Positions 4,748 through 29,138 of a DNA stretch of 64,000 nt are shown here, in pieces. The notes beneath the pieces are model-generated. The model was not told the DNA's origin, made no database searches, and saw only the letters and a list, made by a program, of their open reading frames with translations. How positions within the stretch are numbered: position 1 is the first letter of the stretch; every line of letters begins with the position of its first letter. The stretch lies in assembly GCF_048403405.1 (NCBI RefSeq), contig NZ_CP183129.1; one strand, written 5' to 3'. The stretch is from Escherichia coli (lineage in GTDB: Bacteria; Pseudomonadota; Gammaproteobacteria; Enterobacterales; Enterobacteriaceae). A program made the position numbers and the translations under genes.

Positions 4748-6220
4748 ATGTCCCGAATGGCAGAACAGCAGCTTTATATACATGGTGGTTATACCTCCGC
4801 CACCAGCGGTCGCACCTTCGAGACCATTAACCCGGCCAACGGTAACGTGCTGGCGACCGTGCAGGCCGCCGGGCGTGAGGATGTCGATCGCGCCGTGAAG
4901 AGTGCCCAACAGGGGCAAAAAATCTGGGCGGCGATGACCGCTATGGAACGCTCGCGTATTCTGCATCGAGCCGTTGATATTCTGCGTGAACGCAATGACG
5001 AACTCGCAAAACTGGAAACCCTCGACACCGGAAAAGCGTATTCGGAAACCTCAACCGTCGATATCGTTACCGGCGCGGACGTGCTCGAGTACTACGCCGG
5101 GCTGATCCCGTCGCTGGAAGGCAGCCAGATCCCATTGCGTGAGACGTCATTTGTCTATACCCGCCGCGAACCGCTGGGCGTAGTGGCAGGGGTTGGCGCA
5201 TGGAACTACCCGATCCAGATTGCCCTGTGGAAATCCGCCCCGGCGCTGGCGGCAGGCAATGCAATGATGTTCAAACCGAGTGAAGTCACCCCGCTTACCG
5301 CGTTAAAGCTGGCTGAAATTTACAGCGAAGCGGGCCTGCCGGACGGCGTATTTAACGTGCTGCCGGGCGTAGGTGCGGAAACCGGGCAGTATCTGACCGA
5401 GCATCCGGGCATTGCCAAAGTGTCATTTACCGGCGGTGTCGCCAGCGGCAAAAAAGTGATGGCTAACTCGGCGGCTTCCTCCCTGAAAGAAGTGACCATG
5501 GAGCTGGGCGGTAAATCACCGCTGATCGTTTTCGACGATGCGGATCTCGATCTCGCCGCTGATATCGCCATGATGGCGAACTTCTTCAGCTCCGGTCAGG
5601 TGTGTACCAACGGCACCCGCGTGTTTATTCCGGCGAAATGCAAAGCCGCATTTGAACAAAAGATTCTGGCTCGCGTTGAGCGCATTCGCGCGGGCGACGT
5701 TTTCGATCCGCAAACTAACTTTGGCCCGCTGGTCAGCTTCCCGCATCGCGATAACGTGCTGCGTTACATCGCCAAAGGCAAAGAGGAAGGCGCGCGCGTA
5801 CTGTGCGGCGGCGATGTACTGAAAGGCGATGGCTTCGATAACGGCGCATGGGTTGCACCGACCGTGTTCACCGATTGCCGCGACGAAATGACCATCGTGC
5901 GCGAAGAGATCTTCGGTCCGGTGATGTCGCTTCTCACTTATGAATCTGAGGACGAAGTGATTCGCCGCGCCAATGATACCGACTACGGCCTGGCGGCGGG
6001 CATCGTGACGGCGGACCTGAACCGCGCGCATCGCGTCATTCATCAGCTGGAAGCGGGTATTTGCTGGATCAACACCTGGGGCGAATCCCCTGCTGAGATG
6101 CCCGTTGGCGGCTACAAACACTCCGGCATTGGTCGCGAGAACGGCGTGATGACGCTCCAGAGTTACACCCAGGTGAAGTCCATCCAGGTTGAGATGGCTA
6201 AATTCCAGTCCATATTCTAA
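4748..6220 (+). CDS. betB: betaine aldehyde dehydrogenase BetB
   Basis: ORF 4745(GTG)..6220; ATG 4748 preceded by GAGGAG; aldehyde dehydrogenase family sequence, [16 protein letters not shown]-terminus. Confidence 0.92.
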
Positions 6221-6233
6221 CCAGGAGGTTTAT

Positions 6234-7922
6234 TTGCAATTTGACTACATCATTATTGGTGCCGGCTCAGCCGGCAACGTTCTCGCTACCCGTCTGACTG
6301 AAGATCCGAACACAACCGTGCTGCTGCTTGAAGCAGGCGGCCCGGACTATCGCTTTGACTTCCGCACCCAGATGCCCGCCGCGCTGGCGTTCCCGTTACA
6401 GGGTAAACGCTATAACTGGGCCTATGAGACGGAACCGGAACCGTTTATGAACAACCGTCGCATGGAGTGCGGACGCGGTAAGGGGCTTGGCGGGTCATCA
6501 CTGATCAACGGCATGTGTTACATCCGTGGTAACGCGCTGGATCTCGACAACTGGGCGCAAGAACCTGGCCTGGAGAACTGGAGTTATCTCGACTGCCTGC
6601 CCTACTACCGCAAGGCCGAGACTCGCGACGTGGGCGAGAACGACTACCACGGCGGTGATGGCCCGGTGAGCGTCACCACCTCCAAACCCGGCGTCAATCC
6701 GCTGTTTGAAGCGATGATTGAAGCGGGCGTGCAGGCGGGCTACCCGCGCACGGACGATCTCAACGGCTATCAGCAGGAAGGTTTTGGCCCGATGGATCGC
6801 ACCGTCACGCCGCATGGCCGTCGCGCCAGCACCGCGCGTGGCTATCTCGATCAGGCCAAATCGCGCCCTAACCTGACCATTCGAACTCACGCCATGACCG
6901 ATCACATCATTTTTGACGGCAAACGCGCGGTGGGCGTCGAGTGGCTGGAAGGCGACAGCACCATTCCGACCCGCGCGGCGGCGAATAAAGAGGTGCTGTT
7001 ATGTGCAGGCGCGATTGCCTCACCGCAGATCCTGCAACGTTCCGGCGTGGGTAGCGCTGAACTGCTGGCGGAGTTTGATATTCCGCTAGTGCATGATTTA
7101 CCCGGCGTCGGCGAAAATCTTCAGGATCACCTGGAGATGTATCTGCAATATGAGTGCAAAGAACCGGTTTCCCTCTACCCTGCCCTGCAGTGGTGGAATC
7201 AGCCGAAAATCGGTGCGGAGTGGCTGTTTGGCGGCACCGGCGTTGGTGCCAGCAACCACTTTGAAGCAGGCGGATTTATTCGCAGCCGTGAGGAATTTAC
7301 GTGGCCGAATATTCAGTACCATTTCCTGCCAGTGGCGATTAACTATAACGGCTCGAACGCAGTGAAAGAGCACGGCTTCCAGTGCCACGTCGGATCGATG
7401 CGCTCGCCAAGCCGTGGGCATGTGCGGATTAAATCCCGCGACCCGCACCAGCATCCGGGAATTCTGTTTAACTACATGTCGCACGAGCAGGACTGGCAGG
7501 AGTTCCGCGACGCAATTCGCATCACCCGGGAGATCATGCATCAACCGGCGCTGGATCAGTATCGTGGCCGCGAAATCAGCCCCGGTGTCGAATGCCAGAC
7601 GGATGAGCAGCTCGATGAGTTCGTGCGTAACCACGCCGAAACCGCCTTCCACCCGTGCGGTACCTGCAAAATGGGTTATGACGAGATGGCAGTGGTTGAC
7701 GCCGAAGGCCGCGTACACGGGCTGGAAGGCCTGCGCGTGGTGGATGCGTCAATTATGCCGCAGATTATCACCGGCAATTTGAACGCCACGACGATTATGA
7801 TTGGCGAGAAAATGGCGGATATGATTCGCGGGAAGGATGCGTTGCCGAGGAGCACGGCGGGATATTATGTGGCAAATGGGATGCCGGTGAGAGCGAAAAA
7901 AATGAGTCGTGATTTGAACTGA
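6234..7922 (+). CDS. betA: choline dehydrogenase BetA (GMC oxidoreductase)
   Basis: N-terminal FAD motif [14 protein letters not shown]; apparent TTG start at 6234 with AGGAGG 5 nt upstream; track ORF starts at TTG 6189 inside betB. Confidence 0.85.
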
Positions 7923-8115
7923 CTCAGGAACCTATCAGATTGAGAGTTACCGTTCTACTATGAGGACCGAATCCTTATATAAAACACTGAGGTAACTCTC
8001 ATGCTTCATATCCAGTATTCATGATGCTGGTTTTTTGCTGATATTTAACCCGAACACTCCTGATACAGCCTATTAATTCATTTATCTGCGGCAGATTTTA
8101 TTTTCTGGATATATT

Positions 8116-8784
8116 ATGAGTGAACAAATCAAACAGGATATCGATCTGATTGAGATTTTATTTTATCTGAAGAAAAAGATTCGTATTATCCTTTTTATTA
8201 TAACTATCTGTATGGCAATGGTGCTGTTGTTTCTGTATATCAATAAAGATAATATAAAAGTGAGTTACAGCCTAAAAATAAACCAGACAACACCAGGCAT
8301 ACTTGTTAGCTGTGATAGCAATAATAACTTTGCCTGTCAGACCACAATGACTGAAGATGTTATTCAGCGAATTACTACATTTTTTCAGACCAGCCCAGAT
8401 GTCAAGAACAGAGAAATAAAGCTGGAATGGTCAGGAGATAAGAGAGATTTACCAACTGCTGAAGCGGAAATATCTCGCGTGCAGGCGTCTATTATCAAAT
8501 GGTATGCGTCAGAATATCATAATGGCAGGCAAGTTCTCGATGAGATACAAACACCTTCAGCAATTAACAGTGAGCTTTATACAAAAATGATATACCTGAC
8601 CAGGAACTGGTCATTGTATCCGAACGGTGATGGCTGTGTAACTATAAGCTCACCAGAAATAAAAAATAAATACCCTGATGCCATTTGCCTGGCTCTGGGA
8701 TTTTTTATAAGCATTGTAATTTCTGTAATGTTTTGCCTTGTCAAAAAAATGGTAGATGGATACCAACAAAACTCTGGGCAGTAA
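8116..8784 (+). CDS. ykgH: predicted inner-membrane protein, YkgH-like
   Basis: 222-aa ORF with one N-terminal and one C-terminal hydrophobic segment; position between betA and ykgG matches ykgH. Confidence 0.6.
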   Translation: MSEQIKQDIDLIEILFYLKKKIRIILFIITICMAMVLLFLYINKDNIKVSYSLKINQTTPGILVSCDSNNNFACQTTMTEDVIQRITTFFQTSPDVKNREIKLEWSGDKRDLPTAEAEISRVQASIIKWYASEYHNGRQVLDEIQTPSAINSELYTKMIYLTRNWSLYPNGDGCVTISSPEIKNKYPDAICLALGFFISIVISVMFCLVKKMVDGYQQNSGQ

Positions 8785-8854
8785 TAAACAGCATTCTGAC
8801 AGAGAGTGCCTGTATAAAACTATAGTAACAATGACCGGGAAGGGAGCCCGTCTT

Positions 8855-8878
8855 CAGGAATGGATTCCTGTCTTTTTC
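8855..8878 (+). terminator. putative intrinsic terminator after ykgH
   Basis: Hairpin CAGGAATGGATTCCTG followed by TCTTTTT, 70 nt after the ykgH stop. Confidence 0.4.
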
Positions 8879-9026
8879 ACTGTAAATATCCTGGCATTAT
8901 TAATGTCAGGATATTTACAGAAGAGCAGCATAACCATGACGGAACGGGGTTAAGTCAGGTTGTCCTTAACGCTATTCACAACCTCGTATGCCGCCTTCAG
9001 GTTTATGTCCAGACTTCATATCTCTC

Positions 9027-9722
9027 TCAGCAATCCTCAATAATCAGATACACCGCTTTCACCGGGCCATGAACCCCGACGACTTTGATAAGCTCAATAT
9101 CCGCCGTTGAACTAGGGCCGCTAATGATGTTAATGCAGGACGGCATTCGTTCACCGGCCTGCGCTTTCTGATGCAATTTTTCTGCGAGTTGCGCTACACG
9201 CGGCAGGATAGTGCTTTTACGCAGGATAAAAAGAGAAGATTCCGGGAGCAGGCTCAATGAACGCCCGCGCCCGGCGGCGGAAAAAAGAACCACGCCTCCC
9301 GATTCGGTTAAACCATATTCAGCATACACTACGCCAACTTTAGCCTGCTCTGCCTGCGAGATATTCTCGGCACCTTTCGCCGGATCCCAAACAACGGCAT
9401 TGCATTCCTGCTGCAAACGTTCGCTAATCCCCAATTCCTCCAGCCTCGTGTCACCGCTAATCACGATCGACTGATCTCCCAGCTCTTTACACAGACGTAT
9501 TGCAGCTTCTGCGGCCTGCGCCTCGCTGGTCAGTTCACAGCGCGTCAACATAACATCGCTGGCAAACTGGATAAACGCGTCACAACGCTGCTGTTGGTTA
9601 AGTTGGGTAAGCCGCTCGTTAGCATAGTTGTTAAGCGGCGCATCTTCTGCTTGCGGTTCAAGTCGCAGCGGGCGACCCAGTGCCTGAGCAACGTTATTCA
9701 AAAATTCGCTCCGATTATCCAT
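9027..9722 (-). CDS. ykgG: LutC-like lactate utilisation protein YkgG
   Basis: ORF 9027..9875; start placed at ATG 9722 (MDNRSEF...), 231 aa, overlapping ykgF stop by 8 bp. Confidence 0.75.
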   Translation of the reverse strand: MDNRSEFLNNVAQALGRPLRLEPQAEDAPLNNYANERLTQLNQQQRCDAFIQFASDVMLTRCELTSEAQAAEAAIRLCKELGDQSIVISGDTRLEELGISERLQQECNAVVWDPAKGAENISQAEQAKVGVVYAEYGLTESGGVVLFSAAGRGRSLSLLPESSLFILRKSTILPRVAQLAEKLHQKAQAGERMPSCINIISGPSSTADIELIKVVGVHGPVKAVYLIIEDC

Positions 9723-11142
9723 TCTTTTTCTCCTGCGCCTGATGTTTCTTAAACCAACTACGGAAACTCTCTCCGTCAGCTTCAGGAAGATCGCGTGCTT
9801 CCATCCAGTCGCTAATCGCGCCAAATTTGAGTGGTGTTTTGCCGCCATTGATAAACCAGCTTGCCGCATGAGCACCGGCCATCATCCCGACTTTCCACAA
9901 TCCTGGATGACTATTGGCATAAGCGAACATTTTTATCGCCCGTTGCTCTGCTTTTGCGGTGATCCCTTTTTCAGCCATCACCCGACGATGACGCAAAATC
10001 AGTTTTGACAGCGGAATACGCACCGGACACACGCTGTCACAAGCAGTGCATAAAGAGCAGGCGTAGGGTAAATCTTTAAAATCTTTATAGCCGCCAAGTA
10101 GCGGAGAAATCACCGCACCAATTGGCCCTGGATAAATAGAGCCATATCCATGACCGCCAATATGGCGATATGCCGGACAAGTATTCATACAAGCCCCGCA
10201 GCGAATACAGCGCAGCACATCCCGAAATTCAGAGGCCAGCACCTCAGAACGCCCGTTATCGACAATAACCAGATGAAACTCTTCAGGACCATCAACGTGC
10301 CCCGCTTCGCGCGGTCCTGTCAGCCAGGTGTTGTATCCCGTCAAACGTGCACCAACGGCACTGCGCGCCAGCATGGTGATCAATACATCTACCTCGGCAA
10401 ACGTGGGGGCAATACGCTCCATTCCCATCACTGCAATATGCGTTTTAGGCAGCGTGGTACACATTCGCGCATTACCTTCATTGGTCACCAGGCATACCGA
10501 ACCGGTCTCTGCCACCGCGAAATTACAGCCGGTAATACCTATTTCAGCACTGAGGAAATCTTCGCGGATTTTTTGCCGGATGAATAAGGTCATTGCTTCA
10601 GGCGTTTCCGACCCCTCATAGCCCAGACGTTCGTGTAGCACCCGACGGATCTGATGGCGATCTTTATGAATTGCCGGGACCACAACATGAGAGGGCGGAT
10701 CTTGATCCAGCTGGAGAATGTATTCACCCAGATCGGTTTCAATCACCTGAATGCCAGCATCCTGCAACACATGATTGACACCAATCTCTTCGGTCACCAT
10801 CGATTTAGATTTCACCACCTTCCGGGCATTTTTGCGTTGGGCAACCTGTAAAATGTAGCGAGTGGCGTCTTCTTTAGTTTTTGCAAAATAGACGTGACCG
10901 CCGTTTTGCGTCACTTTTTCTGAGAGCTGGTACAGATAAGCGTCGAGATTACTCAGAACATGATCACGTATCTGGGCGGCCCGATCGCGCCACTCCTCCC
11001 AGTGCCCCAATTCATCGACCATTTTTTGCCGATTTGCCCCGATACGCTGCTGCGCGTTTGCCACCGCTTTGCGCATGATCGGATCTTCAATTTGCTGACG
11101 GATGCGTGTCTTAAAATCTGTATTACTGGTTTTGATCGACAT
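9715..11142 (-). CDS. ykgF: LutB-like iron-sulfur protein YkgF (4Fe-4S ferredoxin-type Cys motifs)
   Basis: 475-aa ORF with CxxCxxC clusters (CIRCGACMNTCP, CSLCTACDSVCP). Confidence 0.8.
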   Translation of the reverse strand: MSIKTSNTDFKTRIRQQIEDPIMRKAVANAQQRIGANRQKMVDELGHWEEWRDRAAQIRDHVLSNLDAYLYQLSEKVTQNGGHVYFAKTKEDATRYILQVAQRKNARKVVKSKSMVTEEIGVNHVLQDAGIQVIETDLGEYILQLDQDPPSHVVVPAIHKDRHQIRRVLHERLGYEGSETPEAMTLFIRQKIREDFLSAEIGITGCNFAVAETGSVCLVTNEGNARMCTTLPKTHIAVMGMERIAPTFAEVDVLITMLARSAVGARLTGYNTWLTGPREAGHVDGPEEFHLVIVDNGRSEVLASEFRDVLRCIRCGACMNTCPAYRHIGGHGYGSIYPGPIGAVISPLLGGYKDFKDLPYACSLCTACDSVCPVRIPLSKLILRHRRVMAEKGITAKAEQRAIKMFAYANSHPGLWKVGMMAGAHAASWFINGGKTPLKFGAISDWMEARDLPEADGESFRSWFKKHQAQEKKNG

Positions 11143-15914: not shown

Positions 15915-16799
15915 TCAATCATGTATTTTTACAGCAAGACAACCACGAACAAATTCAGGATTAAAATGTTTTACCGACTCCCCAACATAACCCAAATCAA
16001 GCGAACTAATTTGTGCCATTTCTTTCTCTGTCAGTGAGAAATCCCAGATAGCAAAATTTTCTTCGATACGCTGTTGATGTGTCGATTTCGGAATAACGAC
16101 CACTCCCCGTTGAATATTCCAACGCAGAATGACTTGAGAAATCGATTTTTGATGGGCATCTGCAATACTCTGAAGCAGATTATTTTCAAAGGGTTTATGT
16201 CGTCCACCACCTAACGGAGCCCATGCTTCAGGCTGCACGTTATAATACTTCATGGTTGCCAGCGCCTCTGGTTGGGCAAAATAGGGATGCAACTCGACCT
16301 GGTTGACCATCGGTTTAACTCTTACCGTTTCACAAAAGTTCGCCAGAACATGAGGATAGAAATTGGAAACCCCAATTGCTTTTAATTTGCCCTCTTCATA
16401 GGCATCTTCGAGTGCACGCCACGCACTGAAATAATCGCGCATAGCCTGGTGCAATAAATAGAGGTCGAAGTATTCTAGTCCCGATTTTTTTAATGATGCT
16501 TCAATACCTGCTTTTGCCGTATCCTGATTCAACATATCCTGCACCCACAATTTAGACGTTATAAATAACTCATCTCGGGTACATAAACCTTCAGATATGG
16601 CTTCACGAACGGCTTCACCGACGGCATCTTCATTACCGTATACCGCTGCAGTGTCGATGAGTCGATAACCCGTGCGGATAGCATTCAACACTGACTGTTT
16701 GCACACGTCTTTATCGGTAACCTGAAAAACACCAAATCCCATCATCGGCATTTTCAGATTGTTACTTAATACGTAAAATTCCACTGTCAGTCCCTCCAT
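15915..16799 (-). CDS. aldo-keto reductase (DkgA/YvgN-like)
   Basis: 294-aa ORF with AKR motifs ([24 protein letters not shown]); paralogous to ORF 22828..23679; a GTG start 15 nt downstream is possible. Confidence 0.75.
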   Translation of the reverse strand: MEGLTVEFYVLSNNLKMPMMGFGVFQVTDKDVCKQSVLNAIRTGYRLIDTAAVYGNEDAVGEAVREAISEGLCTRDELFITSKLWVQDMLNQDTAKAGIEASLKKSGLEYFDLYLLHQAMRDYFSAWRALEDAYEEGKLKAIGVSNFYPHVLANFCETVRVKPMVNQVELHPYFAQPEALATMKYYNVQPEAWAPLGGGRHKPFENNLLQSIADAHQKSISQVILRWNIQRGVVVIPKSTHQQRIEENFAIWDFSLTEKEMAQISSLDLGYVGESVKHFNPEFVRGCLAVKIHD

Positions 16800-17889: not shown

Positions 17890-17946
17890 CTGTAGCGATG
17901 TTTACATGAATTTATAACGAGACTACTGTCAGGCAATTCAATAAAT

Positions 17947-17980
17947 AATGGCGTTGAAGATGTCAACGCCATTATTGTTT
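17947..17980. terminator. bidirectional intrinsic terminator between ykgA and fdeC
   Basis: Perfect hairpin AATGGCGTTGA-agatg-TCAACGCCATT flanked by A-rich (upstream) and T-rich (downstream) tracts, between convergent genes. Confidence 0.55.
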
Positions 17981-18009: not shown

Positions 18010-21000
18010 TTACTTCATCGCCTCCTCGCCCTTTGCCGTATCGGCATCCACCGCGGTTATGGTCACCGTCACTGGCTTCATTTCGTACCCGCCATAGGTC
18101 AGGGCGTTAAATGTGAACGTATAGACACCAGGCTTGCTGGTACTAAATGTACGCGTGATTTTTCCGCTCACGAAATGGTCATTTTTCGACGGCAGGAATT
18201 GATAATCCTTCTCCGTCACTCCTTCCGGAGCCTCAATGTCGACCCACACATTCCCCCCAACAGGGTTATTTGCCGAGAACAGGGTAACCTCCAGCTTCGC
18301 AGTCGATTTCCCATCCGCCACCAGCGATTGCACATCAGATGATGCGGTGAGCTCCGCGTTTTTATCATCCGCGACGAATTTAGATTCGGCAGTTTTCGTT
18401 GATACCTGACCGTTGGTCTGACTCACTTGCGCCTTGAGTGTGTATGTCGCCGCAACAGTAGTGGTAGCGGTGAAAATAGCCTGCCCTTGCTCATTCGTTG
18501 TCGCAGTGCCATTCGGTTCCAGGTTTAACGAAGCCGGGCTGGCAGTCAGCGTCACGTCGCTATCTTTCAACAGGTTGTTATTGGCATCAGTCACCGTAAC
18601 TTTATACGTCTGTTTGGCTTTGCCGTCCGCCAGTGCATAGATGCCAATCACCTCAATACTGGAAACGGTTGCGGTAGCCTTATCGGCTACAAACGTTATA
18701 GTCTGCGCATCTGAAGGCTGGTCATTTCCTGCCGACGCCGTGATCTCATAGGTTCCGGCAGTCACGGAAACCACCTGCAACTCTGCTTTCCCCTCATCGT
18801 TGGCTTTCACCCAGACATTATCGCCAGTAAGCGGCTTGACACCCCGGGGCAGATTAAAGGTCACCAGAGTGCCTGGAACAGGGTTACCGTTTTTATCCTC
18901 AACGGTCGCCGTCAGCGTAAAGGCATCTTTGCCGTTTGCCACTTTTTGAACGGCGGTGTCTACCTGCAGGTTTGCCTGACCGGTGCTGGCATCCGCGTTG
19001 AATTTCACCGTGACCGTCTTCTGAGAGTTTTTCACCGCGGCCGCGATTTCAAGTTCCCCTGCAACGGTTGATATCAACTCAATATCCGCTTTACCTGCCG
19101 CATTGGTTGTTACTGTATTCCCCGTCTTGCTAGTCACACCCTGCGGTAAAGTCAGCGTAACTTCTTGCCCCTGCAACGGGTTACCATAGCTGTCCACGAC
19201 GGTCAGGGTTACCTGGTTAGCAGACTGTCCATTTGCCAGTTGGTTATTCACCTTCACCGCCATATCACTGATCACTGCCCGGGAAGCGTCGCCTGCAACA
19301 TTCAGCACCAGTGGCTGAGCAACGGCATTTTGGCCGTTCACTCGCGGCATCACAGACAACTGACCCGCGGCAGATCCCAGCGTTAAGGTCGCCACGTAGA
19401 CCCCATTACCTTTCTCTGTCCAGTTTCCTGCTGAAGGACGCTCACTCCCCGTGCTGGCGGCACCGCTAAACACTGGTGCATCTGGCTTCAGCCCGGTGAC
19501 CGAGTTCCCATACGCATCCTTCACGGTGAAGGTGAGTTCCGTCGTCGTTTTGACGGTCGGAGCCTTATTGTCCGCAACAAGCGTAGAGTTCGCTGATGAC
19601 ATCTCTCCGGCGATGACCGTCAACTGTGCGGCTTCGGTGGCTGCTGGCTGGCCGTTGAAGAGCGGCATGACGCGAAGCTCGCCCGTCTTTCCGCCTGTAG
19701 TCAACGTAGCAACATAGGAACCGTCACCTTTTTCGGTCCAACTGGAAACGGTCGCCCCTTCAGAGGCGGTCCCCGTCAAACTTGCCGACAACGAAAGACC
19801 ACTGATAGCGTTGCCATGTGCATCTTTCGCCACCAACGTCACGGTTGTGCTTTCGCCGGCTTTTACGTGATCTTCCGCGACAGAGACTTTCGACTGGTTT
19901 GAAGATAACGCATCAGCCACCACGGTTACTTTTGCCGCATTTGCTGCCGCATCCTGTCCATTTAGCTTCGGCATAACTTCTAATTCACCCGCCGTAGAGC
20001 CGAGAGTAATCTGCGCAGTCCACGTCCCATCACCATTATTTGTCCAGCCAGATGCCGTAGAACCAACAGCAGCGGCACCCGCTAATGACGGCGCTTCCGG
20101 CGTGAGGCTGGTCACAGGGTTGTCATTGGCATCTTTTGTCGACCAGATTGCCGTAAGCGTACCGCCGACCACCGGTTTATCAGGATTCAGGGTGATGGAC
20201 GAATGTGCTGCATCAAGCGGCCCGGCAACAAACTTCAGCGTTTGTTGTAATGTGCCCAGCTGATACTGCTCGCTGAAGGCGCGCAAAACAACGTTTCCGG
20301 CACGGGTCGAAGAAACCGTGGCGCTGTAAACCCCTGGTTTTATTTCCGAAATGGCACCAACGGTAACACCATTAGTGTCTTGCGGAACAAGTCGCAGGCG
20401 GCTGGCTTCTCCCGTCACCGGATTACCCTCGGAGTCCACCGCAGTCAGCGTCAGCGTGTAGGCTTGCTGACCATCAGCAACCACGTCACCTGACGGCTCG
20501 TTAGCGCTCAGGGTGGAGTTTGCCACATCCATCATCGTGGCCCGCAGTTCTGCAGTGACGGTTTTGCTCATGCCATCAACGCTAACAGTAATCGTTGCCT
20601 CACCTGACTGCGTTCCGGTCGTAAAGACAGACTGATACACCCCTGCTTCAGTTTCGGTGAACTCACCCAGTGTTGGCTTTGCCTGTGATTTAGTGGCCTT
20701 CAGGGAACGAGTCACAATATTTCCAGCCGGTTTGAAGGTTAGTTCAGTCTTGATCTGCTCCTTCATGCCCGTGACTGGCTGGCCCTCGGCGTCGCGCAGA
20801 GACAGCACCAGCGGCTTTTGCTCATTACCGTTAGCAAGCATTTGAATACGGCTCTGACCGTCAAGCGTTAACGCCGTGCGATCGGCGCTCATACCAGCTC
20901 CGGTAATAACCACTTCTGTCTGCACACGTTTCGAGGCATTACCTTTGTTATCGTAGGCAACTGCTGAAATCGCATAATAATTGTCTTTGCCTGGACGGTA

Positions 21001-22263
21001 AGCCGGGAGCGTTACTTGCCACTGACTACCCTGACCGGTAATTTTGCCACCTTCAGCCAGTAATGACGGCGCTTCCCATTGCACATTTTTCAGTCCGTGA
21101 GTTGCTTTGCTGACCACAAGCCCCAGGGAAAGTGTCTGACCGCCCTTGCCTTCAATACGCTCAGGCAGAGCAATACGAATCACTTCAGATTTGCGGTACT
21201 CAAGAACGATGTTGTTATTACGCTCAACCAGGTCATAGCGGCTGCCTGCCAGCATTCGACGCTCGCGAATGCTGTCTGTATCGAGTTGTTTTTCCAGAGG
21301 TTCGCCAATCCGATAATTAACTTCCAGGCCAAAGCGAGTGTCATTCTCACCACTCTTGCCCTGCTTATGCCCGGCACTCAGGGTCAGAAGAGGCACTGGC
21401 GTGTAATTCACTTCAGCGGTAATCGCATGTGGATCTTTCTGGCGTTTATCTTTACCAAACAGCCCGACTTCATCGCCATAATACTGTTCATACATCAGGC
21501 TTGCGCCAAGCTGCGGCCAGGCAGGTAAATAGCCCTCAGCACGAATATCCCAGCCATTCGCCGGGCGTTCCTGATAATCCTCAACATCCGGTGATTTTTT
21601 CCAGCCAGAAGCCCGGATATAACCATTGGCGCTCAGTTTCAAATAATCACGCCAGTATTCCGCACCAACACCAATGCGGGTATGACTACGGGATAAATCA
21701 TGATCGATAAAAGTATTCACCCCCGCCATCCAGTCATTTCCTGAAAAATGACGCCAGCCAAAACCAATATTTGACTGAGTACGATCGTCGGTACGATGTA
21801 TTGCCCCCTGAGTGAACAACATATTTGTCGGCGTATCATAAATAGGATAAAGCATTTCCAGCGAAGAATCCTTCAGCGAGAAATCTTTATCGACATTCAG
21901 TTTGACGCGCGCTGTACCATATTTTCCGAGCCACTCCTGTATTTCCTGGTTAGCTTTAGCGGTGGCTATTCCGGTAATAAAATTACGTGTCGCATCGCTA
22001 TCTGGCTGACTGCTTAAAAATGTCCCGGCATTTGCGGCAAACGACGCGACATTTTTCTCCACGTTATTATCACCAGTTACCGTAGTATTTCCCATGCTCA
22101 ACCGTGGCTGAACCGCATGCTGCGCACGTGCCGCCATTACTGGGGTAAAGGTGACAGCGAGTGGAAAAAGAACCTGAACAGAGATATTTGCCCACGCCAC
22201 GCAGCGGGCCAGAACTGAATAACGAAATCGTGGTTGTTTATGACCTGTTTTATAACGTGACAT
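18010..22263 (-). CDS. fdeC: intimin/invasin-family adhesin FdeC (EaeH), full length
   Basis: Uninterrupted 1417-aa ORF; N-terminal beta-barrel region then many repeated Ig-like segments rich in T/V/A/G. Confidence 0.85.
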   Translation of the reverse strand: MSRYKTGHKQPRFRYSVLARCVAWANISVQVLFPLAVTFTPVMAARAQHAVQPRLSMGNTTVTGDNNVEKNVASFAANAGTFLSSQPDSDATRNFITGIATAKANQEIQEWLGKYGTARVKLNVDKDFSLKDSSLEMLYPIYDTPTNMLFTQGAIHRTDDRTQSNIGFGWRHFSGNDWMAGVNTFIDHDLSRSHTRIGVGAEYWRDYLKLSANGYIRASGWKKSPDVEDYQERPANGWDIRAEGYLPAWPQLGASLMYEQYYGDEVGLFGKDKRQKDPHAITAEVNYTPVPLLTLSAGHKQGKSGENDTRFGLEVNYRIGEPLEKQLDTDSIRERRMLAGSRYDLVERNNNIVLEYRKSEVIRIALPERIEGKGGQTLSLGLVVSKATHGLKNVQWEAPSLLAEGGKITGQGSQWQVTLPAYRPGKDNYYAISAVAYDNKGNASKRVQTEVVITGAGMSADRTALTLDGQSRIQMLANGNEQKPLVLSLRDAEGQPVTGMKEQIKTELTFKPAGNIVTRSLKATKSQAKPTLGEFTETEAGVYQSVFTTGTQSGEATITVSVDGMSKTVTAELRATMMDVANSTLSANEPSGDVVADGQQAYTLTLTAVDSEGNPVTGEASRLRLVPQDTNGVTVGAISEIKPGVYSATVSSTRAGNVVLRAFSEQYQLGTLQQTLKFVAGPLDAAHSSITLNPDKPVVGGTLTAIWSTKDANDNPVTSLTPEAPSLAGAAAVGSTASGWTNNGDGTWTAQITLGSTAGELEVMPKLNGQDAAANAAKVTVVADALSSNQSKVSVAEDHVKAGESTTVTLVAKDAHGNAISGLSLSASLTGTASEGATVSSWTEKGDGSYVATLTTGGKTGELRVMPLFNGQPAATEAAQLTVIAGEMSSANSTLVADNKAPTVKTTTELTFTVKDAYGNSVTGLKPDAPVFSGAASTGSERPSAGNWTEKGNGVYVATLTLGSAAGQLSVMPRVNGQNAVAQPLVLNVAGDASRAVISDMAVKVNNQLANGQSANQVTLTVVDSYGNPLQGQEVTLTLPQGVTSKTGNTVTTNAAGKADIELISTVAGELEIAAAVKNSQKTVTVKFNADASTGQANLQVDTAVQKVANGKDAFTLTATVEDKNGNPVPGTLVTFNLPRGVKPLTGDNVWVKANDEGKAELQVVSVTAGTYEITASAGNDQPSDAQTITFVADKATATVSSIEVIGIYALADGKAKQTYKVTVTDANNNLLKDSDVTLTASPASLNLEPNGTATTNEQGQAIFTATTTVAATYTLKAQVSQTNGQVSTKTAESKFVADDKNAELTASSDVQSLVADGKSTAKLEVTLFSANNPVGGNVWVDIEAPEGVTEKDYQFLPSKNDHFVSGKITRTFSTSKPGVYTFTFNALTYGGYEMKPVTVTITAVDADTAKGEEAMK

Positions 22264-22812
22264 TGAGATAATTTCCTGATGAACGAATTAACGAACATAG
22301 GCAGACACAAATAGTGGCGTCTGCTTGTCAGAAAAACCGGGAAATCCCCGATTTCCTTTTCCGCAGAAAAGGAAATACCTTTATGTAAGAAAGTACACCG
22401 CCACCTAATATATCCAGTGTCTGTAGCCACTCATCAGGTGGTTGGGCGCGGGATTATATTTTTATTTATGGGTAAAAATTTAGCTTTTTGTGCAAGTTAT
22501 TAAATAGATACCTAAGTTATATTTTTACTCTGCGGACAGTGAATAATTCATTATTCAGAGTGAATAATAATGGCCTGCCTTTAATTAACAACTATTGGAA
22601 ATACGTCGAAGTAGGTATATACGCCAGGATAAACCGATATATTTTTTATGGATATTCATTTTCCTTTATCGGACTGTAAATTGCGGGGATATCGAACTTG
22701 CACTACTCATCGCAACACTCAAACAGATTTATGAATTTCGTTCATAACCCCTGACAAATCCTGCCGTCTAATCGAGCTCTTCTCTTTACGTTATGCTTCT
22801 CATGAACGATAA

Positions 22813-25679
<2,867 letters not shown>

Positions 25680-25819
25680 CTATTATTTTAACCACATTAT
25701 TAGTAACAATGATAATCTGGCTGTATCGAAAATAATTCTAAACTTTCAGGAGATTTATTATGAATAAACGTATCCTCACGATTGCGCCATTCTTCTTACC
25801 GATATTCTGACACACATCA

Positions 25820-26746
25820 TTAACTTTCTATTTTTACTCTTTTCTCCACCATAAAATCAATAAAAGCACGAACTTTAGAGGGCATTCTCACCCGTGATGA
25901 AACATATATATAAAATCCAGGAAATGAAACGGCCCAATCCTCAAGAATCGGCTGTAACTTGCCCGCATTGATATGTTCAGCGATTGCAAAATCCAGATGT
26001 TGAATGATACCCGTTCCATTCAGCGCCATTCGTATCATGCTTTCGTCATCATTAGAAATATACTTACCTGAAACCTCTATTTCGAACTCTTCATTACCCC
26101 CCACAACATTAGAAAACTCCCATGCAGAGAGTGCACCGCTACTTTTATGCCGCAACCGAAGGCAATTATGGTTACTCAGTTCCTGAGGCGTTTCAGGAAT
26201 ACCGTGTTCTTTTAAATAATCTGGCGATGCCACAGTAACCAGTTTAATAAGCGGAGAAACAGGAACGGCAGTCATATGCTCATCCAGTCCTTGCTCAAGA
26301 CGTATGCCCACATCACAGCCGTCCGCAATAATGTTAGATAAACCGTCATCCATAATGAGTTCTATCTTTGTTTTGGGGTAACGAGTAAGAAACTCGCCAA
26401 TATGAGGCTCAACAAGCATCCGTGCTGCAACACGGGAGGAATTTATTCTCAACAGGCCTGTAGGTTCAAGTTGGGTATCACCAACATCTTTCAAAGCATC
26501 ATCAATTTGCCCCAAAGCCGACACCAGCACTTCATACAGACGCTGTCCTTCCTCAGTAAGCGACATATTGCGGGTCGTACGGTATATCAGCTTGGTGTTA
26601 AGACGTTCCTCAAGAGATTTTAAATTCTGGGACAATGCGGCCCGTGTAATACCCATTTCAGAAGCGGCTCTGGAAAAACTGCCGGCACGAACAATAAGCG
26701 CAAACCAGGCAAGAGAAGGCAAAATTGAAGGCTCTATTTTCATCAT
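25820..26746 (-). CDS. LysR-family transcriptional regulator
   Basis: ORF 25820..26809; ATG 26746 with AAGG RBS; LysR HTH (FSRAASEMGITRAALSQNLKSLEERL); divergent from hydrolase gene at 26903. Confidence 0.75.
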   Translation of the reverse strand: MMKIEPSILPSLAWFALIVRAGSFSRAASEMGITRAALSQNLKSLEERLNTKLIYRTTRNMSLTEEGQRLYEVLVSALGQIDDALKDVGDTQLEPTGLLRINSSRVAARMLVEPHIGEFLTRYPKTKIELIMDDGLSNIIADGCDVGIRLEQGLDEHMTAVPVSPLIKLVTVASPDYLKEHGIPETPQELSNHNCLRLRHKSSGALSAWEFSNVVGGNEEFEIEVSGKYISNDDESMIRMALNGTGIIQHLDFAIAEHINAGKLQPILEDWAVSFPGFYIYVSSRVRMPSKVRAFIDFMVEKRVKIES

Positions 26747-26902
26747 TGTAAACCTTAACTTAACACTGTGATAGATATTAGACCATTGATGATAACCAAT
26801 ACAAGTCATACTATTACGCCGTTCTCGATATGAACACGAATGCCAGTTGCGGATAATAGAAATGATATTTAAATCTGTTTAGGCAAATCCCCGGAGCTTG
26901 AA

Positions 26903-27823
26903 ATGAAAACTGTTTCGATAAAACATACTTACTGGGATATAGCTGCTGATATCTATTTCCCTGACGATTTTAATAGTGAAAAAAAGTATCCTGCCATTAT
27001 CAGCGCCCATCCAATTGGAAGCTGCAAAGAACAGACATCGGGCAGTGTGTATGGTGCCGCCCTGGCAAAAGCTGGCTTTATCGTCATTGCTTTTGATGCC
27101 AGTTTTCAGGGAAGCAGCGGTGGAGAACCGCGTTATCTGGAAGATCCAACAATGCGAGTAAAAGACTTCAGCATTGTCGTTGATTACCTTACCACCTTAC
27201 CTTACGTTGATGCCGGGCGTATTGGTGTACTGGGTATTTGTGGTGGAGGTGGATATGCCATTAATGCCGCAATGACAGAACGTCGAATTAAAGCTATTGG
27301 TACTGTCACGGGTGCAAACTACGGGCGTCTTATGCGTGAGGGATTTACAGCGTTTAATCCTATCGGAGCACTCGAAGCGATGGCGCAACAAAGAACAGAC
27401 GAAGCTAACGGCGCAAAACTTCGCGTAGATGATTTACTCCCCTCTTCTCCGGATGCAGCTCTTGAAGCGGGATTAACAGAAATAGACCTTTTTGAAGCCA
27501 CAGAATATTATCGTTCGCCACGAGGCTGTGCACCTAATGGGGTAAATCGTTCGCTATTCTCACATCAGACTGTTGCCGTGGGTTGGGATGCATTTCATCT
27601 TGCAGAAGTCCTGTTAACTCAACCAATAATGGTTGTGGTGGGCGATAGAGTGGGCGCATTTGGTGCCTACCGTGACGGCTGCGAAATTATTGGCCGCGCT
27701 GCCTCAAAACATAAAGAGCTGGTCGTGGTTGAAGGTTATTCACATTACGACCTGTATGATAAGCCAGAACCTGTGAAACAGGCACTCGAAAAATTAATTC
27801 CTTTTTATAAAACACATTTGTAA
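26903..27823 (+). CDS. alpha/beta-fold hydrolase with Cys at the nucleophile elbow (dienelactone-hydrolase-like)
   Basis: 306-aa ORF, GGAG RBS; motif RIGVLGICGGGGYA (G-x-C-x-G) and conserved His in YSHYDLYD; no signal peptide. Confidence 0.7.
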   Translation: MKTVSIKHTYWDIAADIYFPDDFNSEKKYPAIISAHPIGSCKEQTSGSVYGAALAKAGFIVIAFDASFQGSSGGEPRYLEDPTMRVKDFSIVVDYLTTLPYVDAGRIGVLGICGGGGYAINAAMTERRIKAIGTVTGANYGRLMREGFTAFNPIGALEAMAQQRTDEANGAKLRVDDLLPSSPDAALEAGLTEIDLFEATEYYRSPRGCAPNGVNRSLFSHQTVAVGWDAFHLAEVLLTQPIMVVVGDRVGAFGAYRDGCEIIGRAASKHKELVVVEGYSHYDLYDKPEPVKQALEKLIPFYKTHL

Positions 27824-27995
27824 TAATCTTACAGGGAGATTCCTTATCTCCCTGACATTTATCCTTTATTGACTACACAACAATAATAAAATTACTCAAA
27901 AAGAATTCTATTAAAGGAAAAAAGCATCAAAAAGTAGCAACTCAACTTATTAAGATTATACGCATTAAAATCAGATAAACATTTGAGGTATTGTT

Positions 27996-29138
27996 ATGAC
28001 AAATAAACACCCATCATTGTTTTCTCCTTTTATGCTGACAGAAAAAATAAAGCTACGTAATCGTATCGTTATGGCCCCTATGACGACCTGGTCAGCGAAT
28101 CCTGATGGAACCATCTCTGAGCAAGAACTCGAATTTTATAAACGCCGCTCACAAAATGTTGGTTTAGTAATAACAGGATGTACCTATGTCACGCCAAGCG
28201 GCATTGGGTTTACTCATGAATTTGCCGCGTATGACGACCGTTTCATTAACAGCCTTGAAAAGTTAGCAGCGGCAGCCAAAAGTGGCGGTGCTCCGGCTAT
28301 TTTGCAGATTTTCCACGCCGGTAATAAAGCCATCCCGGAGCTTGTGCCAAATAACGATGTTATTAGTGCCAGCGCATCAAGCGTAAAATCTGGTGACTTT
28401 ATGAAGAGAGTGGTACAAAGCAGGGAAATGACTGAAAACGAAATTCAGGAAACCATTAGAGCATTCGGAGATGTCACAAAAAGGGCGATTAAAGCAGGTT
28501 TTGATGGCGTTGAACTTCATGGTGCGCACGGATTCCTTCTGCAGAATTTCTTCTCCCCTCTATTTAACCAGCGTAATGACCGATGGGGAGGAGATCTTGA
28601 AGGACGTATGCGCTTCCCGCTGGCCGTATTACAGGAAGTAAAAAATGTAGTCTATGAATATGCGACAAAGCGCTTTGCTATCGGTTACAGAATATCTCCT
28701 GAAGAATCTGTAACAGGGGGGCTGCGGATAGAGGATACTTATAAACTCCTTGATCGACTCATTTCATCCGGTATTTCGTATATACATACCTCGCTGGTCA
28801 GTATTAACGATAGCTACCCTGTTGAGTCGCCAAATGGCCCCCGAACTATTGAATTGATTTTAAATCATATTGCAGGCAGAGTGCCGGTAATCGCTGCAGG
28901 TAAAATACGCACACCGTCTCAGGCTCAAGAAGCAATTTCCGCTGGCCTGCCACTTGTTGCGATCGGTAAAGGGCTGGTGATAAATCCAGAATGGGTGACT
29001 TTAGCTGAATCAGGTAGAAGCCATGAAATTCAAACAACCCTTAATCCACAACTTGTTCCTGAATTAACCATTCCGGATAAACTATGGGATCAAATTCAGG
29101 CATCGAAAGGAACTGGCTGGTTTCCGTTAATGGATTAA
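27996..29138 (+). CDS. NADH:flavin oxidoreductase, Old Yellow Enzyme family (ene-reductase)
   Basis: 380-aa ORF, GAGG RBS; OYE signatures (PMTTWSA, HGAHGFLLQNFFSP, GYRISPEE). Confidence 0.8.
   Translation: MTNKHPSLFSPFMLTEKIKLRNRIVMAPMTTWSANPDGTISEQELEFYKRRSQNVGLVITGCTYVTPSGIGFTHEFAAYDDRFINSLEKLAAAAKSGGAPAILQIFHAGNKAIPELVPNNDVISASASSVKSGDFMKRVVQSREMTENEIQETIRAFGDVTKRAIKAGFDGVELHGAHGFLLQNFFSPLFNQRNDRWGGDLEGRMRFPLAVLQEVKNVVYEYATKRFAIGYRISPEESVTGGLRIEDTYKLLDRLISSGISYIHTSLVSINDSYPVESPNGPRTIELILNHIAGRVPVIAAGKIRTPSQAQEAISAGLPLVAIGKGLVINPEWVTLAESGRSHEIQTTLNPQLVPELTIPDKLWDQIQASKGTGWFPLMD

Follow-up and report, generated by a model that had tools for sequence, protein, structure and literature searches.

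Here we analysed a stretch of Escherichia coli DNA of 64,000 nucleotides (nt) (contig NZ_CP183129.1; hereafter, the window), in which one large gene occupies positions 18010..22263 of the minus strand. We are highly confident that this gene is an intact and ordinary allele of fdeC (eaeH), which encodes a chromosomal type Ve adhesin, and that it combines tandem immunoglobulin-like (Ig-like) units that have diverged from one another with a stable number of units and mosaicism between strains. All of these main points have already been published for fdeC (Nesta et al. 2012; Heinz et al. 2016), and there is nothing new about the gene of the window itself.

The open reading frame begins with ATG, runs for 1417 codons plus a stop codon and contains no internal stops, on the basis of the list of open reading frames and the translation. 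In a megablast search of 5426 complete E. coli genomes, it matched the annotated fdeC coding sequence (WP_000092628.1) of E. coli TUM14771 with 100% identity over 4254 nt, gap-free from end to end. The surrounding region (10010-30263) is 99.98% identical to TUM14771 across 20,254 nt, and the annotation of that genome can therefore be transferred to the window. Residues 595-1008 (414 amino acids (aa)) match the chain of the FdeC crystal structure, 4E9L, with E = 1e-245, and amino-acid identity to six other annotated FdeC alleles is 91-97%, above the 90% by which Nesta et al. 2012 recognize orthologues. Because no FdeC-specific NCBIfam model passes its cutoff, we took the identity of the gene from DNA identity, the match to the Protein Data Bank (PDB) and synteny; judged on these sequence comparisons, we consider the assignment to fdeC to be beyond reasonable doubt. 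A first-pass annotation of the window had already named the gene fdeC and described it as a single frame of 1417 codons without an insertion sequence (IS). Its coordinates and codon count were exact (it gave no strand; the strand is minus), the name is upheld by the RefSeq coding sequence, the 4E9L match and the fit of the neighbourhood, and intactness is upheld by the gap-free alignment to TUM14771 and by indels of only 1-2 codons relative to six other full-length alleles.

The published FdeC/EaeH (ECOK1_0290 of strain IHE3034; EaeH of enterotoxigenic E. coli H10407) is the same gene at the same locus, with a published length of 1416 aa compared with 1417 aa here; the layout of a barrel and ten Big domains is shared and differences are at the level of the allele only. 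Close relatives of the window allele are few: only 13 complete-genome records are at least 99% identical to it, and most are 90-97% identical.

Architecture and class of the adhesin

The product has a barrel ahead of a passenger that is built of domains of the Ig superfamily (Big/Invasin_D3), which is the arrangement of inverse autotransporters. The gene and its parts lie as follows; dN/dS is the ratio of nonsynonymous to synonymous divergence.

18010..22263, minus strand: fdeC coding sequence, intact, with a TAA stop (open-reading-frame list, translation and DNA match)
22090..22263, minus strand: N-terminal region, aa 1-58, with a basic start and then the hydrophobic VLARCVAWANISVQVLFPLAVTFTPVMA; presumably a long signal peptide and a short periplasmic segment (translation)
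21193..22089, minus strand: inverse-autotransporter β-barrel, ~aa 59-357 (PF11924; matches to 4E1T and 4E1S; dN/dS of 0.06 among seven alleles)
18013..21192, minus strand: passenger of ten tandem Ig-like (Big) units, D1-D10 (iterated hidden Markov model (HMM), Pfam and unit alignment)
19255..20199, minus strand: units D4-D6, aa 689-1003, a sub-family of the Invasin_D3 type and the units most alike (38-43% aa and 46-51% nt identity), inside the region matched by 4E9L
18013..19254, minus strand: distal units D7-D10, aa 1004-1417, the variable and mosaic tip (divergence, dN/dS and the comparison with strain AF34)

The Pfam profile PF11924 (IAT_beta) matches aa 76-350 (E = 3.6e-110; 277/279 profile positions), and the solved invasin/intimin barrels 4E1T and 4E1S match the same part of the protein (E = 9e-84 and 4e-72, respectively). 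Together with 4E9L, solved structures are thus available for homologues of the barrel and for units D3-D6. Ahead of the barrel, the N-terminus is basic and continues into a long hydrophobic stretch ending in VMA-ARA, as judged by eye on the translation. Pfam assigns nine stretches of the passenger to Invasin_D3 and five to Big_1. An HMM seeded on one unit and iterated recovered 8-9 further units (E = 1e-15 to 1e-31 each) at a spacing of ~100-110 aa, with starts near aa 476, 595, 689-702, 800, 901, 1009, 1108, 1211 and 1315. The first unit (aa 358-470) is intimin-D00-like, as indicated by a match to 6TQD, and brings the count to ten, the number of Big domains reported for FdeC by Heinz et al. 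2016; D1-D10 start at approximately aa 358, 471, 591, 689, 794, 898, 1004, 1104, 1206 and 1311. Domain prediction thus gave a barrel and Big-type units and the HMM confirmed their periodicity, in agreement with the first-pass description of a product made of Ig-like segments of ~100 aa.

An intimin or invasin in the strict sense would end in a C-terminal lectin-like domain that binds Tir or β1-integrin. Such an identity finds some support in the N-terminal 400-470 aa, which are matched by NCBIfam intimin models with E = 1e-113 to 1e-115. However, the intimin_all model reaches 387 bits against a cutoff of 1400, with a match that is confined to aa 59-466. Every NCBIfam match is to an N-terminal model of some related adhesin (IatC, Ilp, intimin, SinH and YchO) and lies below the cutoff of that model, including the best match, to the IatC N-terminal model (641 bits compared with a cutoff of 2400). 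Neither a LysM domain nor a C-type lectin-like C-terminal domain was detected by Pfam at E <= 0.01, and the last unit was recognized as Ig-like by the HMM. Intimin (EaeA) and Yersinia invasin are type Ve proteins with a homologous N-terminal barrel and a Big-domain passenger, as is FdeC, but they have four or five Ig-like units whereas FdeC has ten, and FdeC lacks both the C-type lectin-like tip and the LysM domain. Heinz et al. 2016 also set FdeC-type adhesins apart as their own sub-family. The window gene belongs to this FdeC sub-family of type Ve adhesins, and we give the strict intimin/invasin identity, which the domain content refutes, practically no credence. YeeJ, IatB, IatC and IatD (Goh et al. 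2019, PMC6714894) are of the same family and have modular Big-repeat passengers, but are encoded at other loci and range from 725 to 2934 aa.

By analogy with the family and on the basis of published work, the N-terminal signal sequence would carry the protein across the inner membrane (Sec export). The barrel (~aa 59-357) would insert into the outer membrane, assisted by the β-barrel assembly machinery (BAM) and the translocation and assembly module (TAM), and the C-terminal passenger would be threaded out through it by a hairpin-type export. The rod of ten Ig-like domains may then hold the adhesive distal part away from the cell. Export of the passenger has been shown by experiment for FdeC of strain CFT073, with TAM-enhanced assembly and a protease-accessible 100-kDa passenger (Heinz et al. 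2016), and FdeC binds collagen and cells (Nesta et al. 2012, PMC3324786). The literature also reports binding to epithelial cells and expression that is triggered by contact with the host or by temperature.

Divergence of the units and stability of their number

The first-pass annotation carried the periodicity of the protein over to the DNA, which it held to be internally repetitive and able to vary in length by recombination; neither statement was borne out. Tandem Repeats Finder (minimum score of 30) found no tandem repeats in the gene, and a general repeat search of the plus strand returned only direct matches of 16-29 nt with 66-94% identity and irregular spacing, which is the level expected by chance. 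No exact direct repeat is longer than 16 nt (the 30 codon-shuffled controls gave 11-15 nt), and the two copies of that repeat are 978 nt apart, which is not the spacing of the units. Self-BLASTN gave just two alignments above the shuffled range (512 nt with 56% identity and 200 nt with 62%, offset by 310 and 615 nt); both fall among D4-D6, the only place with any echo of the periodicity at the DNA level; self-BLASTP of the whole protein returned the diagonal only. In a codon-aware alignment of the ten units, pairwise identity is 12-43% for aa and 27-51% for nt, and the longest in-register identical run between units is 10 nt.

RecA-dependent exchange requires ~20-30 bp or more of near-perfect identity. 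Long near-identical runs at the unit spacing, which would mark a recombinogenic tandem repeat, were not found in the gene, and the sampled alleles show no whole-unit length polymorphism. The ten units are ancient duplicates that have kept their fold but not their DNA sequence, and for this reason they are too diverged to serve as a substrate for homologous recombination with one another, in keeping with a stable unit number. Genes of the streptococcal alpha C/Rib family contain near-identical tandem DNA repeats, the copy number of which shifts by recombination. Like fdeC, they encode periodic surface proteins of tandem Ig-like or similar modules; however, their repeats are almost identical in DNA, whereas the fdeC units give no tandem-repeat signal and the length of the gene is stable. 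The methodological point is that a periodic protein does not imply repetitive DNA, and length variation by recombination should therefore not be assumed for diverged Ig-repeat adhesins.

A match to fdeC is present in 5078 of the 5426 complete genomes, and one place covers at least 80% of the gene in 4585 of them. Among full-coverage matches, all 35 of the sampled rows span 4242-4254 nt; these rows are an evenly spaced sample of the match ranking and not a full census. The seven annotated alleles are 4248-4257 nt in length (1415-1418 aa), and their alignment is gapped at three columns only, with indels of 1-2 codons, so that the sampled alleles as a whole fall within 4242-4257 nt. In a large protein collection, most clusters at 90% identity have lengths of 1413-1420 aa, including the three largest (17,949, 3,112 and 3,064 members).

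Rare in-frame variants of 1148-1379 aa also occur; they are mostly singletons, although two (P0117 and P0030) are each found on 15-17 contigs. We mapped 12 of them (P0030, P0092, P0094, P0102, P0104, P0107, P0108, P0112, P0113, P0115, P0117 and P0118), with deletions of 38-269 aa. Two of the junctions are in register (P0092 and P0094), nine join non-equivalent positions (offsets of 18-109 alignment columns) and one lies in the barrel. Microhomology at the junctions is 1-9 nt, with a mean of 3.6 nt; 20,000 size-matched, random in-frame deletions average 0.81 nt. Such junctions are the mark of illegitimate deletion by slippage, as opposed to an exchange between homologous repeats, and rare microhomology-mediated in-frame deletion is one route by which the gene varies.

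Two further features of these variants were observed. Three independent deletions fall close together where D1 meets D2 (window aa 454-560). P0117 and P0030 are possibly clonal lineages with shortened adhesins, and some of the variants could be assembly artefacts.

These data bear on the view of the first-pass annotation, that unequal homologous recombination or slippage between units alters their number among strains. In its favour are the periodic protein, the faint D4-D6 echo in the DNA (56-62% identity at the two offsets) and differences of whole units, in register, in two singleton variants and in two relatives described below, a 6-unit plasmid paralogue and a 12-unit form. On the other side are the lack of tandem repeats and the short in-register runs, the near-invariant length in the sampled complete genomes and in most protein clusters, the largest among them, and the microhomology junctions, of which ten of the 12 are out of register or in the barrel. 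In addition, the two units added in the 12-unit form share only 27-45% identity with their D4-D6 neighbours and are therefore not a recent duplication. We regard recombination between units as largely refuted by these comparisons and as very improbable, and the unit number of fdeC in E. coli appears to be stable.

Several points weigh against our overall reading of an ordinary allele with a stable number of units. Stability in complete genomes draws on summary counts and the 35 sampled rows, and, by rank, up to a few percent of genomes could hold whole-unit deletions. P0092 and P0094 are singletons with in-register deletions of one unit, and the 6-unit plasmid paralogue and the 12-unit form differ from the window gene in register by whole units; the unit number has therefore not stayed constant over long periods. 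The microhomology values come from the window allele, which stands in for the parental alleles. Finally, the secretion route, collagen binding and control by H-NS are known from the literature and not from the sequence of the window.

Mosaic alleles, selection and inactivated copies

Variation among strains is distributed unevenly along the gene. Mean pairwise nt divergence among the seven alleles is 1.7-4.3% in the N-terminus, the barrel and D1-D3, rises to 4.9-7.0% in D4-D6 and reaches 9.0-15.5% in D7-D10, where aa divergence is 10-17%. The dN/dS ratio is 0.06-0.40 in all regions (0.22-0.40 in D7-D10) and never more than 1, from which we conclude that purifying selection acts throughout the gene. 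Synonymous divergence (dS) is as high as 0.49 in D10, a sign of old allele classes. We also considered positive selection on the tip, which is unsupported: dN/dS is less than 0.4 in every region of the seven alleles, at this resolution.

Comparisons of pairs of alleles point to exchange. When the window allele is set against AF34, no nt site differs in aa 1-850 (0/2550), after which the differing sites number 16/300 (aa 851-950), 0/600 (aa 951-1150), 39/450 (aa 1151-1300) and 75/345 (aa 1301-1417). For strain 141 the trend is reversed, with 86/2550 differences from the window at the 5′ end and 24/351 at the 3′ end, and the switch in closeness between AF34 and 141 is significant (Fisher p = 1e-26 and 2e-8). 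The window allele is thus a mosaic of segments that are present in other strains, with at least three breakpoints in the comparison with AF34, and fdeC has been shaped by homologous exchange between alleles of different strains. Such exchange generates mosaics and a divergence that rises towards the exposed tip.

D10 (window 18013-18363, aa 1301-1417) exists in at least two old allele classes, with C-termini of ...KGEEAMK, ...NGEEEMP or ...TEGAEEK. The classes are up to 22-38% apart in nt, and the dS of ~0.49 far exceeds that of the remainder of the gene; they are swapped among otherwise near-identical alleles.

Variation of this kind has been noted before. Heinz et al. 2016 coloured FdeC according to how well its parts are conserved among FdeC subtypes (95% to 60%), and Aleksandrowicz et al. 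2024 catalogued hundreds of FdeC sequence variants. FdeC is a published vaccine antigen of extraintestinal pathogenic E. coli as well as an adhesin, and the present allele matters little beyond its correct annotation. A stable unit number, a conserved membrane-proximal part and an exposed D7-D10 tip that is a patchwork are possibly of use to a vaccine designer; these points agree with the existing literature.

Occasional inactivation is a further route of variation. The copy in K-12 had been described, in the first-pass annotation, as interrupted by an IS element, which holds broadly true. An IS3 element does follow the fdeC remnant, but it stands in place of 3717 nt and does not simply interrupt the gene. 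In a K-12-type genome, nothing of fdeC is left beyond nt 1-876; this remnant is annotated as a partial inverse-autotransporter pseudogene, and directly after it come an IS3 transposase and then a regulator gene that is truncated at its C-terminal end. The remnant is 97% identical to the window and 100% identical to the NDM3 allele. By comparison with NDM3, whose full-length allele is the closest, the missing 3717 nt comprise 3381 nt of fdeC (nt 877 to the end), the spacer and ~197 nt of the regulator gene, with IS3 in their place. The equivalent breakpoint in the window falls inside the barrel.

21387..21388, minus strand: equivalent of the K-12 breakpoint, gene nt 876/877 (alignment of the K-12-type locus; everything 3′ of it is replaced by IS3 in K-12)

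The K-12 event is therefore a truncating deletion associated with IS3, as opposed to a simple insertion from which the element might be excised, and Nesta et al. 2012 (PMC3324786) likewise describe the K-12 copy as a short N-terminal pseudogene. Two other lesions were found. In BS74R-D (H36), 665 nt are deleted out of frame, so that aa ~1011 is joined to aa ~1233 at a junction with microhomology of 2 nt, and in B strains (H37) an internal deletion removes ~3 kb of fdeC. Both of these were considered as unit-number variants and rejected, as both are pseudogenes.

Other parts of the locus differ in the same genomes. A block of ~6.2 kb (window 22814-29046) is shared by the window and TUM14771 and is absent from K-12-type genomes, in which a 90-nt remnant is annotated; its six genes encode a flavin oxidoreductase, an alpha/beta hydrolase, two LysR regulators and two aldo/keto reductases. 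B strains, NDM3, HUM3355, BS74R-D and 2013C-3513 have this 90-nt remnant in their annotation as well, and the deletion of the six genes is therefore lineage-wide and not specific to K-12. Downstream, ~725 nt of an aldo/keto reductase gene (window ~16043-16768) are missing from genomes of the K-12 type, of B strains and of BS74R-D, whose annotations list a partial pseudogene without its N-terminus; this is a third lesion at the K-12 locus.

These inactivations raise the alternative that fdeC is dispensable, decaying in the lineage and silent under H-NS, such that its intactness in the window has no functional meaning. Consistent with this idea, the gene has been inactivated independently in K-12, in B strains and in BS74R-D, and ~16% of the complete genomes have no copy that covers at least 80% of it. 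The region upstream is AT-rich, and fdeC is reportedly under the control of H-NS and temperature, as the title of a 2014 report by Easton et al. has it. An entire gene was detected in only 67% of 126 genomes by Goh et al. 2019 (PMC6714894). Against decay are the dN/dS of 0.06-0.40 everywhere in the seven alleles, which indicates purifying selection, the presence of the gene, at 80% coverage or more, in 4585 of the 5426 genomes, a window allele without a stop or frameshift, and the published adhesion, colonization and vaccine phenotypes of FdeC. We consider decay to be highly improbable and retain the reading of an ordinary, intact allele.

The locus and FdeC-like genes of other lengths

The position of the gene agrees with the published description of the fdeC cluster (Nesta et al. 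2012, PMC3324786), which lies between ykgR/ykgM and rclCBA and brings together as many as three regulators and five reductases/hydrolases. According to the TUM14771 annotation, two aldo/keto reductase genes lie immediately upstream and a convergent gene for an AraC/GyrI-type regulator lies downstream. Farther upstream are two LysR regulators, an alpha/beta hydrolase and a flavin oxidoreductase; farther downstream is one more aldo/keto reductase, followed by rclCBA. The GC content is 0.47-0.57 within fdeC compared with 0.40-0.45 in the flanks. Two features flank the coding sequence.

22264..22827, minus strand: AT-rich upstream intergenic region of 564 nt, GC ~0.40-0.45 (composition and sequence)
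17944..17976, no strand assigned: hairpin with a 14-bp stem, between fdeC and the convergent gene for the AraC/GyrI-type regulator (terminator-like scan and sequence)

One weak promoter-like site (-35/-10 at 22591..22564) was found in a scan that gave 4 sites compared with 5.2 expected, which is chance level; an AGGAAA ribosome-binding site precedes the fdeC ATG. The hairpin is likely to act as a bidirectional terminator.

FdeC-like proteins with other numbers of units were also found. The 12-unit form (P0086) is 1630 aa in length and belongs to a cluster of 234 member sequences; it occurs in some records labelled E. coli, and the Escherichia sp. KTE114 protein P0116 has the same insertion. 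This insertion is exactly 213 aa, or two whole Invasin_D3-type units, and lies in the D5/D6 linker after window aa 884. On four loci (L011-L014), the gene lies at 5001-9893, with the extra units at L011:7653-8291. The convergent AraC/GyrI-like gene is shared with the window locus, whereas genes for a sulfatase, a radical SAM protein and an SbmA-like protein are upstream and hipBA is downstream. A distant-mode blastn search with the 639 nt that encode the two extra units gave no match in the 5426 complete E. coli genomes (28 Gb), and the 12-unit form is thus absent from all of them by this search; it follows that the two units do not cross-match even to D4-D6.

A shorter FdeC-like adhesin of 1001 aa is encoded by the conjugative IncFII plasmid pEF03 of E. 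fergusonii (NZ_CP040808.1; L015:2979-5984) and by the Salmonella plasmids CP082621.1 and CP082693.1, and is located between an IS66-family element and genes for a major facilitator superfamily (MFS) transporter and iucA (aerobactin). It resembles the window FdeC in its barrel and unit types, with 84-92% aa identity over the shared parts, but has six units: two in-register segments of 208 aa (two units each; window aa 740-947 and 1090-1297) are absent, and its last unit is only 56% identical to that of the window. A 2024 paper (PMC11664396) describes 'fdeC' on Salmonella poultry plasmids as previously unreported and does not mention the shorter architecture.

The differences of the 6-unit and 12-unit forms are old or selected and do not stem from ongoing repeat recombination. 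Perhaps FdeC-type adhesins change the length of their stalk over evolutionary time in whole-unit, in-register steps, not by homology between repeats but through selection on those few products of microhomology-mediated deletion or duplication that preserve the fold, with functionally distinct lengths; we put this forward tentatively and think it somewhat less probable than its opposite. Of everything analysed here, only the length forms of the family (6, 10 and 12 units) might be worth a brief further study.

Full-length fdeC also occurs in records of the plasmid database PLSDB. Five of these (NZ_CP141089.1, NZ_CP134663.1, NZ_OL790696.1, CP099174.1 and CP061270.1) are 1.2-4.9 Mb in length and are evidently chromosomes or chromosome fragments filed as plasmids. 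A smaller PLSDB record, NZ_AP023209.1 (68.5 kb), carries a full-length fdeC that is 95.7% identical to the window gene. The 112-kb 'plasmid' CP056250.1 of E. coli RHBSTW-00905 encodes a full-length FdeC-like protein of 1414 aa (L016:2979-7223) with 80% aa identity to the window; the gene adjoins apbC and metG, which are normally chromosomal housekeeping genes, and this record may represent a divergent Escherichia lineage or a misassigned replicon.

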